The position numbers were made by a program, and so were the translations under genes. Below, piece by piece: positions 9,986-15,279 of a DNA stretch of 15,279 nt. The notes beneath the pieces are model-generated. The model was not told the DNA's origin, did no database searches, and was given only the letters and a program-made list of their open reading frames with translations. Numbering within the stretch: the first letter of the stretch is position 1; every line of letters begins with the position of its first letter. The stretch comes from a virus (lineage: Duplodnaviria; Heunggongvirae; Uroviricota; Caudoviricetes): the IMG/VR virus record IMGVR_UViG_2531839149_000015; one strand, 5' to 3'.

Positions 9986-10916
9986 ATTAACCGGCTATGT
10001 ATGGGATGGTTGCGCTGCATCAGGCATGAAGTTATCCAGCGTGGCAATTATGGCCCGCCTGGCTGATTTCAGTAATGACGAAGGTGTGTGCTGGCCATCA
10101 ATTGAAACCATTGCCCGTCAGATTGGCGCGGGGATGAGTACCGTCAGAACGGCTATCGCACGGCTGGAAGCAGAAGGCTGGTTAACGCGTAAGGCGCGTC
10201 GCCAGGGTAACCGCAATGCGTCGAATGTTTATCAGCTTAACGTTGCGAAGCTTCAGGCAGCGGCATTTTCTCAACTGTCAGATTCTGACCCGTCAAAATC
10301 TGACGCATCAAAATCTGACCCGTCAAAATTTGATGCGTCGAAATCTGGCAAAAAAGCGGGTTTTCACCCGTCAGAATCTGGCGGGGATCCGTCAGTAAAA
10401 TCAAAACATGATCCGTCAGATAAAAAACCTTCTCGTCCGGACGCTTCGCAACCGGACACGCAGACGGATGAACAGGATTTTTTAACTCGCCATCCTGATG
10501 CGGTTGTATTCAGCCCTAAAAAGCGCCAGTGGGGGACGCAGGATGATTTGACCTGCGCACAGTGGCTCTGGAAAAAAATCATCGCCCTGTACGAGCAGGC
10601 TGCCGAATGTGACAGCGAGGTGGTTCGTCCCAAAGAACCGAACTGGACAGCCTGGGCAAACGAAATTCGCCTGATGTGTGTGCAGGATGGTCGTACTCAC
10701 AAACAAATCTGCGAGATGTACAGCCGCGTCAGCCGCGATCCGTTCTGGTGCCGTAACGTGCTCAGCCCGTCGAAGCTGCGGGAAAAATGGGATGAGCTTT
10801 CCCTGCGCTTATCGCCGTCCGTCAGCACGTACACAGAAAAACGCGAAGACCCGTACTTCAAAGCCAGTTACGACAATGTGGACTACAGCCAGATCCCGGC
10901 AGGATTCAGGGGGTGA
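9975..10916 (+). CDS. Phage replication initiation protein (N-terminal winged-helix DNA-binding domain, pentapeptide-repeat linker, C-terminal domain)
   Basis: 313 aa; N-terminal HTH (SIETIARQIGAGMSTVRTAIARLEAEGWL); central PSKSD/ASKSD repeats encoded by 15-bp DNA iterons; occupies the gene-O position after the cII-like gene. Confidence 0.75.
   Translation: MSTKLTGYVWDGCAASGMKLSSVAIMARLADFSNDEGVCWPSIETIARQIGAGMSTVRTAIARLEAEGWLTRKARRQGNRNASNVYQLNVAKLQAAAFSQLSDSDPSKSDASKSDPSKFDASKSGKKAGFHPSESGGDPSVKSKHDPSDKKPSRPDASQPDTQTDEQDFLTRHPDAVVFSPKKRQWGTQDDLTCAQWLWKKIIALYEQAAECDSEVVRPKEPNWTAWANEIRLMCVQDGRTHKQICEMYSRVSRDPFWCRNVLSPSKLREKWDELSLRLSPSVSTYTEKREDPYFKASYDNVDYSQIPAGFRG
10275..10349. repeat. Five contiguous 15-bp iterons inside the replication gene (candidate origin), with degenerate copies to about 10427
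   Basis: CTGTCAGATTCTGAC / CCGTCAAAATCTGAC / GCATCAAAATCTGAC / CCGTCAAAATTTGAT / GCGTCGAAATCTGGC; further CCGTCAGAATCTGGC (10368), CCGTCAGTAAAATC (10389), CCGTCAGATAAAAAA (10413) with A-rich stretches. Confidence 0.6.
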
Positions 10917-10918
10917 GC

Positions 10919-11407
10919 ATGAGTCTTTTGAATGACGTTCAGAAATTCATTGAAGCCCATCCGGGCTGTACTTCCGGAGACATTGCGGATGCTTTTGCAG
11001 GTTACTCACGGCAGCGCGTTCTGCAGTCAGCAAGCAAGTTACGTCAGAGTGGGCGTGTGGCTCACCGTTGTGAAGGAGATACACACAGACATTTCCCGCG
11101 CCTGACTGAGAGAGCGCAGGATCCGGAACCACAACCAGTTCGTGAAACCAGACCTGTGCGCAATTTCTATGTCGGCACTAACGACCCGCGGGTGATTTTG
11201 TGCCTGACCCGCCAGGCGGAAGAACTGGAGTCCAGGGGCTTATACCGTCGTGCTGCAACGGTGTGGATGGCGGCATTCCGTGAAAGCCACTCCCTGCCAG
11301 AACGAAACAATTTTTTGGCGCGTCGTGAACGGTGTTTACGGAAAAGCAGTAAGCGGGCTGCATCAGGTGAAGAGTGGTATCTCTCAGGGAATTACGTGGG
11401 GGCTTAA
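10919..11407 (+). CDS. Hypothetical protein with C-terminal PerC-like motif
   Basis: ATG 10919 (RBS AGGGGG; overlaps upstream stop). C-terminal LTRQAEELESRGLYRRAATVWM closely parallels RKAEELESKGLYRRAAARWM of the PerC-family ORF at 13738. No Walker motifs, so not a P/DnaC-type helicase loader. Confidence 0.6.
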   Translation: MSLLNDVQKFIEAHPGCTSGDIADAFAGYSRQRVLQSASKLRQSGRVAHRCEGDTHRHFPRLTERAQDPEPQPVRETRPVRNFYVGTNDPRVILCLTRQAEELESRGLYRRAATVWMAAFRESHSLPERNNFLARRERCLRKSSKRAASGEEWYLSGNYVGA

Positions 11408-12060: not shown

Positions 12061-12383
12061 CGACGTTAACTCAATGCCAGCAGCAGGTGCTGGATATGCT
12101 GATTTCTTATCAGAAAGAACGCGGCTTCCCGCCAACCAATCAGGAGGTGGCAACCATGCTGGGATACCGTTCGGTGAATGCAGCGGTGGAGCATCTTCGC
12201 GCACTGGAGAAAAAAGGCGTCATCACGATAAAGCGTGGTGTGGCCCGGGGGATCACGCTTCATACCGCGGTGAAGGACGACGACAGCGAGGCGGTCGGGA
12301 TTATCCGCTCACTGCTTGCCGGTGAGGAAAACGCAAGGCTGCGTGCAGCCCACTGGTTACATGAGAGGGGGCTGAAAGTATGA
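12057..12383 (+). CDS. LexA N-terminal DNA-binding-domain-like protein (no peptidase domain)
   Basis: 108 aa; MTTLTQCQQQVLDMLISYQKERGFPPTNQEVATMLGYRSVNAAVEHLRALEKKGVI parallels the LexA winged-helix domain; ends without an S24 domain. ATGA overlap with the Dam stop. Confidence 0.6.
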   Translation: MTTLTQCQQQVLDMLISYQKERGFPPTNQEVATMLGYRSVNAAVEHLRALEKKGVITIKRGVARGITLHTAVKDDDSEAVGIIRSLLAGEENARLRAAHWLHERGLKV

Positions 12384-12592
12384 AGCTGATTCTGCCTTTT
12401 CCACCCAGCGTGAACACCTACTGGCGACACCCCAACAAAGGGGCATTTGCTGGTAAGAGCCTGATAAGCGCGGCGGGGCGAAAATTCCAAAGTGCGGCGT
12501 GCACAGCAATAGTTGAGCAGTTACGTCGTCTGCCGAAACCAACGTCGGCACCTGCTTCAGTGGAGATCGTGTTGTTTCCTCCGGATATCTGA
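12380..12592 (+). pseudogene. rusA: Truncated rusA (Holliday-junction resolvase) N-terminal fragment
   Basis: LPFPPSVNTYWRH matches the RusA N-terminal motif; the ORF stops after ...VEIVLFPPDI (70 aa), where full-length RusA would continue with its catalytic acidic residues. No continuation in other frames; downstream sequence is unrelated. Confidence 0.65.
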
Positions 12593-12665
12593 CGTGATAA
12601 ATCGCGTTACATGACATCTCATGTTGTGCTGGTGGTTATCACGACGTTCTGAATCTGGCCTTTGC

Positions 12666-12698
12666 CTGATATTTTGCGACAAGTACGCGCGCGTAGCA
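12666..12698. repeat. Copy A of a ~35-bp imperfect direct repeat containing palindrome TACGCGCGCGTA
   Basis: CTGATATTTTGCGACAAGTACGCGCGCGTAGCA; about 75 bp downstream of the rusA fragment. Confidence 0.55.
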
Positions 12699-12721
12699 TC
12701 GACAGCATACACATTGGATAT

Positions 12722-12943
12722 TCATTTTGTGACCAATGCGATAAGTAGCGGGATAAGAATTGATAAAATCAACAGGCCGATGATCCACTTTTGATTTTCA
12801 CTGGCCTTATCTCTATTTTCATCAATCTTATCAATAATTCGACGCTCCAAGCCGTGCATATCACCGCGAATGGCAATCATCTCATTGCGAACATCCGAGA
12901 AGTGGTTGGCTTGATGTTCAATGTGTGGCGTTCTGCCTTTCAT
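12722..12943 (-). CDS. Small tail-anchored membrane protein (73 aa), unknown function
   Basis: Hydrophilic charged N-terminal region and a single C-terminal hydrophobic helix (WIIGLLILSILIPLLIALV); downstream of and co-oriented with the RHH-like gene. Confidence 0.5.
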   Translation of the reverse strand: MKGRTPHIEHQANHFSDVRNEMIAIRGDMHGLERRIIDKIDENRDKASENQKWIIGLLILSILIPLLIALVTK

Positions 12944-13022
12944 TCCTGATCCTCACCTATCGTCACCACCTGCTGGTGTATAAAGGTATTGGCCCAAGCA
13001 GCTTTCCAATGGGCACTCATGT

Positions 13023-13478
13023 TTATACGCTGACCTTACAATCAATCACCGCTTTTAACTTTTCAGCATTGCTTCCCTGACGCTTCCACGCGCTGTAAAT
13101 ATCTTTATCCCACGCTTTACCAGCTTTTGTTTGATAGCCTGCTTCATTGATCCGTTCAGCTATCACACGCCCATTATCAAATCCCTGTCGGATGGTATCG
13201 GCAATGATCTTTATAACTGCCGTTTCGTTATATGGCTTTGGTGGGATGTTCGGCTTTCCGGCAATAAGCGACGCAGCAGCTTTTTCCATGCGCTCCACCA
13301 GCCCAAGCATTCGTGAATCAATAGACTTTTCCGGCTGTCCCAGCTTCATGCGAATCGCATCAACAAGCCAGGAGGTTTTATCCCCTCCAGAAGCGAGAAC
13401 AGACCGATTAAACTCATCCTGCAATTCAGATGGGATGCGGAACGCGACCAGATTAGATTTGCTCATTGCAAAGACCAT
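13023..13478 (-). CDS. Putative DNA-binding regulator (ribbon-helix-helix-like N-terminus)
   Basis: N-terminal SNLVAFRIPSELQDEFNRSVLASGGDKTSWLVDAIRMKL resembles Arc/CopG-type RHH; C-terminal AGYQTKAGKAWDKDIYSAWKR resembles a recombinase-type DNA-binding helix. Start ambiguous (ATG 13478 or 13466); no clear SD. Confidence 0.55.
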   Translation of the reverse strand: MVFAMSKSNLVAFRIPSELQDEFNRSVLASGGDKTSWLVDAIRMKLGQPEKSIDSRMLGLVERMEKAAASLIAGKPNIPPKPYNETAVIKIIADTIRQGFDNGRVIAERINEAGYQTKAGKAWDKDIYSAWKRQGSNAEKLKAVIDCKVSV

Positions 13479-13580
13479 ATCAGTGAGTAATATCCATACA
13501 GTATATCACTGTATAACACTGTTATACGCTCAAATATCAGCCAGAAAATAACGGGCCAATCACAAAGCTATCGCTGTGTT

Positions 13581-13701
13581 GTTGGTTCAGAGCTGGGCTG
13601 TGTTGGTTCAAAATGAGTTGATGTTGGTTCAATATTTTAGAAAAAACATAATAAAAACAACGATCTTTACAAATTGAACCAACTGAACCAACTGAACCAA
13701 C
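13581..13701. repeat. Iteron-like array: three GTTGGTTCA direct repeats phased at 21 bp, then three tandem inverted copies TGAACCAAC
   Basis: GTTGGTTCA at 13581, 13602, 13623; TGAACCAAC at 13675, 13684, 13693; AT-rich spacer between; lies between divergent genes (13478 minus, 13738 plus). Confidence 0.6.
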
Positions 13702-13737
13702 ACCTTTTTGCTTATCTATATAATCTGAGAGGCAGAA

Positions 13738-14019
13738 ATGATAAGGGACAGGAAAGCTGAAGAGCTGGAGTCAAAAGGGCTATACCGGAGAGCTGCCGCA
13801 CGATGGATGGAAGTCATGCTGTTATGCAGCGAGGACGATGATCGGGAATGGATAAAGCGCCGCCGTGAAACGTGTCTGGAGAACGTGAAGCGCCCGCCCG
13901 TGAAGGTTGAGGAATTTGGCGACCTGCATAAAGCTGTTACCGAAACGCAACACCGCATGGGGATAGCGCAACCGAACGGTAACGCCTTCCGGTTAAATGG
14001 CGGCAAGAGGCAAAGGTAG
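13738..14019 (+). CDS. PerC-family transcriptional activator (Pch-like)
   Basis: 93 aa; MIRDRKAEELESKGLYRRAAARWMEV... matches the PerC/Pch signature as I recall it; RBS GAGAGG upstream. Confidence 0.6.
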   Translation: MIRDRKAEELESKGLYRRAAARWMEVMLLCSEDDDREWIKRRRETCLENVKRPPVKVEEFGDLHKAVTETQHRMGIAQPNGNAFRLNGGKRQR

Positions 14020-14055
14020 ACCACCAGAGGGAAATCATCCTCTGGCTGGCGGTTT

Positions 14056-14090
14056 CTGGTATTTCGGGACAAGTACGCGCGCGCGTAGCA
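14056..14090. repeat. Copy B of the ~35-bp imperfect direct repeat
   Basis: CTGGTATTTCGGGACAAGTACGCGCGCGCGTAGCA; three mismatches and a 2-bp CG expansion relative to copy A; about 40 bp after the PerC-family stop. Confidence 0.55.
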
Positions 14091-14316
14091 CCCAATCGGT
14101 GAGGAAATAGCGGCGACCTGAATGGTCAAAATCACAACGCAGCTATCCCCGTAAGCAGCGCTTAACGGAATAGCAGTAACCTGAATCCAGTGGGGAGGGG
14201 GTAGTCAAATCTCTACAGCCCTGACTATCCGGGACTGCCCGCCCCATCGTTTTTTTATACCCGCGAAAAATGAAATTTAATCCGGGCGTGTTTCATCCTT
14301 CCAGAGGGTATGACGT

Positions 14317-14502
14317 ATGACACCACGCGAAATAGCTTTATTGACCACCGCCAAACTGGAGCACGAAGGCCACCAGCTAACCCCGGCAGATCAACGGGAG
14401 ATAGAACGCTCAGTTAATGCCAATATAGCCCGGCGTGACAAATTTCGCGAAATGATGCGATCCCCCGCCTACCAGTGGAAGAAGCCTGCGCCGCGCAGGT
14501 AG
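14317..14502 (+). CDS. Small hypothetical basic protein (61 aa)
   Basis: ATG 14317 preceded by AGAGGG; hydrophilic with a basic C-terminus; no recognisable motif. Could be a partner of the downstream Panacea gene or a spurious ORF. Confidence 0.35.
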   Translation: MTPREIALLTTAKLEHEGHQLTPADQREIERSVNANIARRDKFREMMRSPAYQWKKPAPRR

Positions 14503-14823
14503 ATTACCTTTATTCACCTTTATATATTCGAACAACAAAACCTCTCGCAGGTCTCGCCAATAAAGGGATATAGCAGTAACTATGACCGCCGAATGGCAAA
14601 GCTACGATGCAAGTCGCTGGTTTCCAAACTTGAGGTTTCCAGGACGGTTTCAACCAAATTGCGGATTATCAGCCAAACGCACCGGGTATCTTGCGCGGTG
14701 GATGGTGAGCCATCACGCAGAATCTTTAAATGGCATTTTACGATGGGCAATACCCGTGGTTATATGCGATTATTAACGGTAGTGGACAGTTATAGACGAA
14801 AACATACGGCAGGAGATTGGATA

Positions 14824-15279
14824 ATGGCAGTTACAACCCTTAACAGCGTAGCGGATTACCTGCTTTGCTTTGCTCAAGAGCATGGGGATGTTATGACGCC
14901 GCTGAAACTGCAAAAAATGGTGTTCTATGCTGATGCTTGGTTCATGGCGCTGAATGATGGCGAAGAACTGGTTGCTGACAAGTTTGAAGCATGGGTACAT
15001 GGCCCTGTAGCCAGAGATTTGTATACCAGATTTGCAGATTACAAATGGCGCTCAATAGACGAAGAGATTGCCTGCCCTGAGTTACCTGCGAATGTGTCAA
15101 AGCATCTAAAGGAAATCTATGAGGTATTTGGCGGTTATACAGCTTATGAGCTGGAGCAGATGACGCACCAAGAAAAGCCGTGGCTGGAGGCCCGTGAAGG
15201 GGTTCCATCAGATGCGCCGTGCAAGAATGTTATTGATAAAAGTGTAACGGCTGAGTTTTATCGTTCGATGGCTTCCTAA
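14824..15279 (+). CDS. Panacea-domain (DUF4065) protein, PanA/SocA/GepA-like putative antitoxin
   Basis: Start set at ATG 14824 (RBS AGGAGA 7 nt upstream) rather than the ORF-track start 14593. 151 aa with TPLKLQKMVFYADAWFMALNDGEEL, matching the Panacea signature as I recall it. Stop is at the last base of the window. Confidence 0.7.
   Translation: MAVTTLNSVADYLLCFAQEHGDVMTPLKLQKMVFYADAWFMALNDGEELVADKFEAWVHGPVARDLYTRFADYKWRSIDEEIACPELPANVSKHLKEIYEVFGGYTAYELEQMTHQEKPWLEAREGVPSDAPCKNVIDKSVTAEFYRSMAS

Follow-up and report, generated by a model that had tools for sequence, protein, structure and literature searches.

A putative autoregulated ribbon-helix-helix gene and its optional membrane-protein cargo gene in the remnant of an EcCIMP1-like phage satellite

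EcCIMP1 is a phage-inducible chromosomal island (PICI) of Escherichia coli MP1, situated at tRNA-Thr, which requires the P22-like helper Kapi1 for its excision and transduction (Pick, Stadel & Raivio 2025; PMC11773190). Kapi1 is a Lederbergvirus and the sole demonstrated helper of this island, and AlpA_1, an Xis-like protein, aids helper excision (PMC11773190). P22-like phages can be excluded by SieA, which blocks entry of their DNA (PMC10883804). SieA proteins have approximately 160–200 aa, three or four transmembrane (TM) helices and the motif FxRYPxEAxxFNK (PMC10883804). Here we describe a leftward two-gene unit in a 15,279-nucleotide stretch of DNA (IMG/VR virus record IMGVR_UViG_2531839149_000015), the whole of which is called the window. 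The unit comprises a gene for a 147-aa putative DNA-binding regulator (13023–13466, minus strand) and a gene for a 73-aa small membrane protein (12722–12943, minus strand); an earlier note on this DNA had read it in the same way, and the comparisons below uphold that reading.

The window remnant and EcCIMP1 belong to the same element family, and the tRNA-Thr site is also the same in the window strain. The explanation that best covers the unit as a whole, and to which we give slightly more than an even chance, is that it forms the regulator and cargo arm of an EcCIMP1-like satellite, autoregulated and with a cargo that acts at the envelope. EcCIMP1-like PICIs are taken as satellites of P22-like phages, and the window carries a remnant only. 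In the intact relatives, homologues of P22 genes 14, 7, 20 and 16 precede a convergent leftward arm mirroring the left arm of P22 immI (mnt-orf59a-sieA).

The island remnant and its intact relatives

By comparison of genomes, window positions 12586–15279 are assigned to the right end of an EcCIMP1-like PICI, fused to a lambdoid rusA fragment (rusA'). Many other genomes match the window only from 12586 rightward, and there the matching segment is the right end of an island of about 20 kb. The part of the window to the left of 12586 belongs to the early region of a lambdoid prophage at tRNA-Thr. It closes with a truncated rusA, a pseudogene (12380–12586) that stops exactly at the start of PICI homology. 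With lambdoid early-region DNA joined to the island's right end, the PICI of the window strain is without int, alpA and primase. All three genes, taken as the marks of a mobilisable element, are present in the intact relatives and missing from the remnant.

Intact islands have the order integrase, AlpA-like regulator, antA, DUF4222, ash, TOPRIM/DUF927 primase and P22 14-7-20-16 homologues, followed by the cargo/regulator unit and then by PerC and a few accessory genes. An intact element with the ribbon-helix-helix (RHH) type of regulator is exemplified by AH25, between yicC and dinD. EcCIMP1 agrees with this architecture in int, alpA, antA, ash, the DUF927 primase, P22-like 'DNA transfer' genes and PerC, but both the RHH gene and the 73-aa gene are missing from it, and alpA_1 stands in the slot. 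When EcCIMP1 was retrieved from the MP1 chromosome and aligned, its identity with the window was 96.6% over 12586–12702 and 95.4% over 13580–14504; in place of the segment 12703–13579, which in the window contains the 73-aa gene and the regulator gene with its promoter, EcCIMP1 has an alpA_1 cassette. Since this cassette lies between shared flanks, the unit can be regarded as another allele of a slot that is already known, in a satellite of a known kind.

The homologues of P22 genes 14, 7, 20 and 16 (ejection proteins and an assembly factor) were located in EcCIMP1-type satellites L069 (5235–10403), L137 (12598–17766) and L065. Capsid, portal, terminase and tail genes were not found in these three.

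The regulator and its putative operator

Both open reading frames (ORFs) of the unit were found on the minus strand where the earlier note had placed them, at 13023–13478 and 12722–12943, in the same-strand order and with a gap of 79 bp. In an identical E. coli chromosome RefSeq labels both as hypothetical protein. The first ORF had been taken as a 151-aa protein. Translation most likely begins at its fifth codon (13466, MSKSNL...), giving 147 aa, since the conserved N-terminus of the family begins there and RefSeq uses that start.

The 147-aa protein is predicted to consist of an RHH N-terminus, a linker helix and a C-terminal four-helix domain (residues ~72–143). Assignment of the N-terminus to the Arc/Mnt type of RHH, a claim already made in general form in the earlier note, is supported by alignment and by secondary structure. 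In the structure model a predicted strand precedes helices at residues 13–25 and 30–41, and hhalign set the N-terminus in register with Arc (E 0.008) and Mnt (E 0.005), lining up F-R-x-P-x-E and both helices. A strand-helix-helix of ~45 residues in register with known RHH members is present in this protein, and a homologue is listed in one database source as 'Arc-like DNA binding domain protein'. Curated RHH profiles (PF03869 Arc, PF01402 RHH_1) gave nothing above threshold for the window protein, which has no Pfam match; one of 26 relatives matches RHH_1 (E 0.074).

The C-terminal domain is invariant and weakly resembles the helix-turn-helix (HTH) of recombinases. A PDB sequence search with the family profile returned chance matches only, Foldseek against PDB gave nothing at E ≤ 0.001, and a search for this domain in other protein architectures found only fragments of the same family. 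The invariant HTH-like domain would have a second partner, other than the origin iterons discussed below.

The regulator matches 357 protein clusters. Species-representative genomes contain it at 49 loci; the genera, about 20, range from Escherichia to Providencia and Photorhabdus, and the loci adjoin int, alpA, antA, DUF4222 or the DUF927 primase. In IMG/VR it is present at 62 more loci, mostly on contigs of ~17–25 kb, where the gene is no more than a few kb from an end. The gene is always convergent with the primase operon, and it is present in 361 of 5,426 complete E. coli genomes. No match to the 147-aa protein was obtained by tblastn against 50,697 phage records. On this distribution the regulator is classed as a conserved backbone gene of the EcCIMP1-like PICI family across Enterobacterales.

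The putative promoter/operator of the regulator gene lies at 13500–13527 (minus strand). It contains the palindrome GTATAAC-N3-GTTATAC at 13511–13527 and a third heptad, GATATAC, overlapping the extended -10 (TGaTATACT, with TATACT at 13500–13505). A simple promoter consensus scan found nothing at 13500–13527; the promoter is assigned from conservation. Directly upstream of the regulator gene in every locus there are heptad repeats with a 10-bp period followed by an extended -10 (TGnTAnAnT). The earlier note had placed the promoter region in the iteron-like array; the conserved promoter/operator is nearer the gene, the iterons (13581–13701) lie farther upstream, and about two thirds of the related elements lack them there.

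Two operator types were distinguished, and each is paired with one type of predicted DNA-contacting strand. In type A (27 loci), the strand S-N-L-(V/I)-A-F-R is paired with the palindrome GTATAAC-N3-GTTATAC, and in type B (21 loci), S-(L/I)-S-V-T-F-R with the direct repeat GTCTTAC-N3-GTCTTAC. No locus among the 27 + 21 is discordant. The IMG/VR set added 34 + 1 concordant loci, and three divergent proteins there have neither operator. Residues 6 and 8, which differ between the types, align with Arc Gln9/Asn11 and Mnt His6/Asn8, residues that contact bases. The perfect palindrome occurs once in the window and once in the intact element L002, and no second conserved DNA motif that might serve as another target was found near the regulator gene.

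We infer that the regulator is autoregulated, by occlusion of its promoter, because the operator covers that promoter and because the operator type co-varies with the predicted DNA-contact residues. Dimers of the 147-aa protein would bind the heptads over the -35/spacer region and the extended -10, and expression of the gene would stay steady and low while the island rests.

The extreme invariance of the C-terminal domain, suggesting a conserved partner, also fits a wider role, in which the protein would be the master regulator of the resting state and a sensor of the helper, equivalent to Stl: the RHH would repress, and a helper or host protein acting on the C-terminal domain would lift repression. 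The gene is conserved, putatively autoregulated and fixed in position near the element end, and Gram-negative PICIs have no known global repressor (PMC6092414). This role is nevertheless considered unlikely: each element has one operator, at the regulator's own promoter; EcCIMP1 stays helper-dependent without the gene; and the operator is absent from Kapi1. A search of Kapi1 for a homologue was likewise negative.

The 73-aa protein and the immI-like cargo slot

The 73-aa protein combines a charged coiled coil with a C-terminal TM helix, an architecture resembling that of XhlA. The single C-terminal helix claimed for it earlier was confirmed at residues 54–72 (IIGLLILSILIPLLIALVT), which have a mean Kyte-Doolittle hydropathy of 2.95 and follow the charged N-terminal part. 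Comparison with three homologues gave dN/dS ~0.2, i.e., purifying selection, from which the gene is taken to be real. In the 79-bp spacer between the two genes (12944–13022, minus strand), read directly, a GAGGA Shine-Dalgarno sequence lies 6 nt before the ATG of the 73-aa gene, and a terminator scan of the spacer predicted none. Co-transcription of the two genes is plausible; the 73-aa gene would then be expressed from the regulator promoter, and its product would enter the inner membrane via the C-terminal helix.

The 73-aa gene is best described as optional cargo in a variable slot downstream of the regulator. Mosaic comparison placed the variable segment at 12703–13055, with breakpoints at 12702/12703 and ~13056, between the regulator 3' end and a conserved 117-bp block (12586–12702) that begins where the rusA pseudogene ends. 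In other E. coli elements the slot holds an Abi-family gene, or ImmA/IrrE together with a hypothetical gene. The 73-aa gene is carried by 169 of the 5,426 complete E. coli genomes, vs. 361 for the regulator, and was not found in the other genera sampled (species-representative and IMG/VR loci).

These counts bear on the proposal, among those of the earlier note, that the two genes are a toxin-antitoxin (TA) or abortive-infection (Abi) unit. In a type II system the 73-aa protein would be a toxin, neutralised by the RHH protein, which would also repress its own synthesis. The unit is like type II RHH antitoxin/toxin operons in having the RHH gene first and the small protein second and in its putatively autoregulated promoter, and it lies among mobile-element cargo beside defence-type genes (Abi family; Panacea-domain gene). 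It differs in lacking a constant partner: about 20 genera have the RHH gene without a 73-aa homologue, and in P22-like prophages the 73-aa family stands behind Mnt and an unrelated 123/138-aa gene. The C-terminal domain, the expected toxin-binding part of an antitoxin, shows no variation in elements without the 73-aa gene, the 79-bp gap leaves the genes uncoupled, and no PADLOC or TA family matches the unit and no Pfam/NCBIfam toxin family or recognised toxin fold was identified for the 73-aa protein. An obligate pair is rejected, as having very little probability, because the two genes are not co-inherited and the C-terminal domain of the regulator is conserved independently of the partner.

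A holin-like or lysis-accessory cassette had also been put forward, in which the 73-aa protein, as an XhlA or a holin, would make the membrane permeable as the satellite or helper cycle closes. The family comprises 46 clusters at 50% identity, and the 73-aa protein matches phrog_6324 (3e-11). In profile searches for XhlA/holin-like families, which the earlier note had suggested, a weak match to the PHROG holin family phrog_689 (E 0.004) was obtained, and nine of ten relatives have XhlA (PF10779) matches of 11–25 bits (best E 2.6e-5), all under the Pfam cut-off of 34.7 bits; the window protein itself has no Pfam match at E ≤ 1. Like XhlA proteins, members of the 73-aa family are short and phage-associated and have a coiled coil at the N-terminus and one TM helix at the C-terminus, but their genes do not lie in a lysis cassette. 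Neither in the window nor in intact elements is there an endolysin, a spanin or a second holin near the unit, and in P22-like phages the homologue belongs to the mnt operon, with the lysis cassette far away in another part of the genome (Kapi1 map). Given this genomic context, an immI/sieA slot rather than a lysis position, a lysis cassette is rejected as highly improbable. Against phage records, the 73-aa protein gave only weak Klebsiella phage matches in an uninformative setting.

The slot itself is informative. In P22-like prophages, 77- and 113-aa homologues of the 73-aa protein are encoded in an operon with the order mnt, 123/138-aa gene, homologue, convergent with gene 16; on the P22 map this position is occupied by mnt-orf59a-sieA. 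The P22 immI left arm is like the satellite arm in several respects. It is leftward and convergent with the ejection-protein gene 16, its first gene encodes an RHH regulator of the Arc/Mnt superfamily with an operator at its own promoter, and the small or membrane proteins downstream are expressed from the resting element (PMC10883804). In satellites with a 66-aa variant the order is regulator, 66-aa gene, gene for a 131-aa polytopic membrane protein, and this arm is convergent with a gp16-like gene; in UTME-12 a similar 129-aa membrane protein is encoded beyond the 73-aa gene, and that gene is lost from the window. The two regions are not identical. The 147-aa regulator has an HTH-like C-terminal domain whereas Mnt has a tetramerisation helix, and on the other side of the satellite arm an origin copy and PerC are found instead of an arc-ant arm. 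We read the two genes, from their order and surroundings, as the leftward arm of an immI-like region common to the satellite and its P22-like helpers. P22 orf59a was compared as a possible homologue of the 73-aa protein and is unrelated.

In Kapi1 (L138), an annotated plus-strand ORF with a CDD XhlA motif (33109–33387) lies inside the immI left arm and overlaps minus-strand ORFs; its strand assignment may be doubtful. As a relative of the 73-aa protein it was rejected, being on the opposite strand and without tblastn similarity to the 73-aa family.

Judged by its position, the 73-aa protein would work at the envelope to counter incoming phage, the part that SieA plays from that slot in P22. 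Of the functions offered in the earlier note an exclusion module comes nearest, and that part of the proposal stands as to location; the exclusion role itself, drawn from genomic position, is tentative and has a chance well below even. The 73-aa protein differs from SieA in having one TM helix rather than three and in lacking the FxRYPxEAxxFNK motif, and the genomic slot is all that the two have in common.

Several observations weigh against the reading of the unit as an autoregulated arm with an envelope-acting cargo. That the 73-aa protein is not a SieA weakens exclusion. Most members of its family have an additional N-terminal region and a glycine linker; the 73-aa form is without both and could be a reduced form. 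For either protein, the Pfam, NCBIfam and PADLOC profile libraries returned nothing above threshold. The RHH part was modelled with low confidence (pLDDT) in a single-chain prediction, as is expected when an obligate dimer is modelled as a monomer. Co-variation of operator and strand divides two clades, and may for this reason reflect few independent events. EcCIMP1 is without both genes, yet it is mobilised and contributes to superinfection immunity, so neither property needs the unit. In the window the unit may moreover be idle, because the satellite there has lost int, alpA and primase.

A reading that joins several of these elements, improbable at present, would make the 147-aa RHH-plus-HTH protein the missing regulator of the resting state in EcCIMP1-type satellites, its invariant C-terminal domain being the point at which a helper or host factor switches the island. 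The XhlA-like protein, driven by it, would then be a new SieA-independent exclusion factor directed at the conduit of P22-like ejection proteins, and satellites and P22-like phages would exchange this factor in a shared immI-like hotspot.

Prophage cargo slots and RHH autoregulators are known, as is the element family itself. The regulator with an RHH, an invariant HTH-like domain and two operator types, the immI-like synteny of satellite and P22-like phages, and the duplicated origin are not described in the EcCIMP1 paper (PMC11773190), and neither are the iterons nor the cos-like site treated below. Islands of the EcCIMP1 type are common in E. coli and have relatives across Enterobacterales; only one has been studied, and that one is without the unit. 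The family thereby gains a candidate conserved regulator, with a defined operator and a putative specificity code, in which strand residues 5, 6 and 8 are set against the two operator types. It also gains a cargo hotspot of the P22 immI kind common to satellites and P22-like helpers, and a duplicated primase-linked origin. Should P22-like phages prove to be excluded by the 73-aa protein, this would offer an alternative to SieA, one approachable with established SieA assays; if that reading is false, a misleading lead toward TA or holin annotation is still removed.

The iteron array and the remainder of the island

Origins of Gram-negative PICIs, described for E. coli, consist of two iteron sets around an AT-rich core next to the primase gene (PMC6092414). 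The array upstream of the unit, 'ori2' (13581–13701), is of this type but differs in its iteron word: three GTTGGTTCA copies 21 bp apart are followed by an AT-rich core of ~40 bp and three contiguous inverted copies, six copies in all vs. 0.13 expected. In intact elements, EcCIMP1 among them, an array with the same word and architecture immediately follows the 3' end of the primase gene. Two origin-type arrays are present in each intact element, the second either tandem to the first or adjoining the regulator gene (L002, 5653–5765; L137, 9853–9973 and 18393–18513; also L006, L036 and L041). Iteron 9-mers fall into six words, one per primase type (GTTGGTTCA, CCCGTTATC, AGTGTGTCA, GTTATCCCA, GTCGGTTCA and GTTGTCTCA), and both regulator domains are constant across them. 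Since the iteron word follows the primase allele and the regulator domains do not change, the array is interpreted as a second copy of the primase-dependent origin of the satellite, read by the primase, and not as a target of the regulator or the promoter of the unit. A distant second iteron copy recalls the ori and crr pair of satellite P4; the comparison with PICI origins and with P4 concerns this neighbouring array and not the two genes.

RHH proteins commonly read short repeat arrays, and of 46 loci, 16 have an origin-type array in the 560 bp that precede the regulator, vs. 4% of random windows. Control of replication or partition was for these reasons considered, with the RHH binding iterons in the manner of the ParR/ParG/omega centromere binders or of CopG-type copy-number repressors. 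Such control is quite unlikely, and is rejected because iteron words vary while both domains are constant, and because strand residues track the promoter heptads and not the iterons. Two thirds of the elements have no array beside the regulator gene, EcCIMP1 retains both arrays without that gene, and there is no ParA or ParM partner. The C-terminal domain was examined separately as an iteron reader and was ruled out by its invariance across all iteron types seen. An indirect part in replication, e.g., through binding of the primase, could still be played by the regulator. A tRNA scan found no tRNA genes in the window, and an Rfam search gave no family, its one spurious miRNA match being caused by the inverted iterons.

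The divergent neighbour of the unit is a PerC-family gene (13738–14019, plus strand; Pfam PF06069 at 1e-30). Its counterpart in EcCIMP1 is EcCIMP1_025, and the EcCIMP1 PerC homologue was reported as repressing LEE1, not activating it (PMC11773190). A second PerC-family gene of the window, yfdN (10913–11407), belongs to the lambdoid part.

A direct repeat of ~35 bp with the core GACAAGTACGCGCGCG flanks the variable cargo slots of E. coli elements (12666–12698, one copy within the 117-bp block, and 14056–14090; ~11795–11825 in L002), and in Serratia fonticola (L014) and Buttiauxella (L022) the core is likewise present close to the regulator gene. The repeats at 12666–12698 and 14056–14090 were considered as ends of mobile cassettes; they bracket variable slots, but evidence for such a mechanism was not found.

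At 14824–15279 and beyond (L001, 16525–17417) a Panacea-domain gene precedes a 144-aa ORF, and next in the accessory region of the satellite comes a pRiA4b ORF-3 family gene. The Panacea-domain gene and the 144-aa ORF are possibly a PanA-type TA pair, which EcCIMP1 does not have.

A segment of ~100 bp at 14186–14290 has 82–95% identity to the cos regions of SfV, SfII, SfIV, SfI, phiP27 (where it is a 'cos-site' feature) and ST64B. It is also present in EcCIMP1, and Kapi1, which packages by a headful mechanism, is not among the matches; the segment may point to a second helper, of the cos type. Directly after it a 61-aa ORF (14317–14502) is kept in many elements and has weak matches to PHROG families of unknown function. 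A diverged second copy of this ORF, with 78% DNA identity, is carried by the alpA_1 cassette of EcCIMP1.

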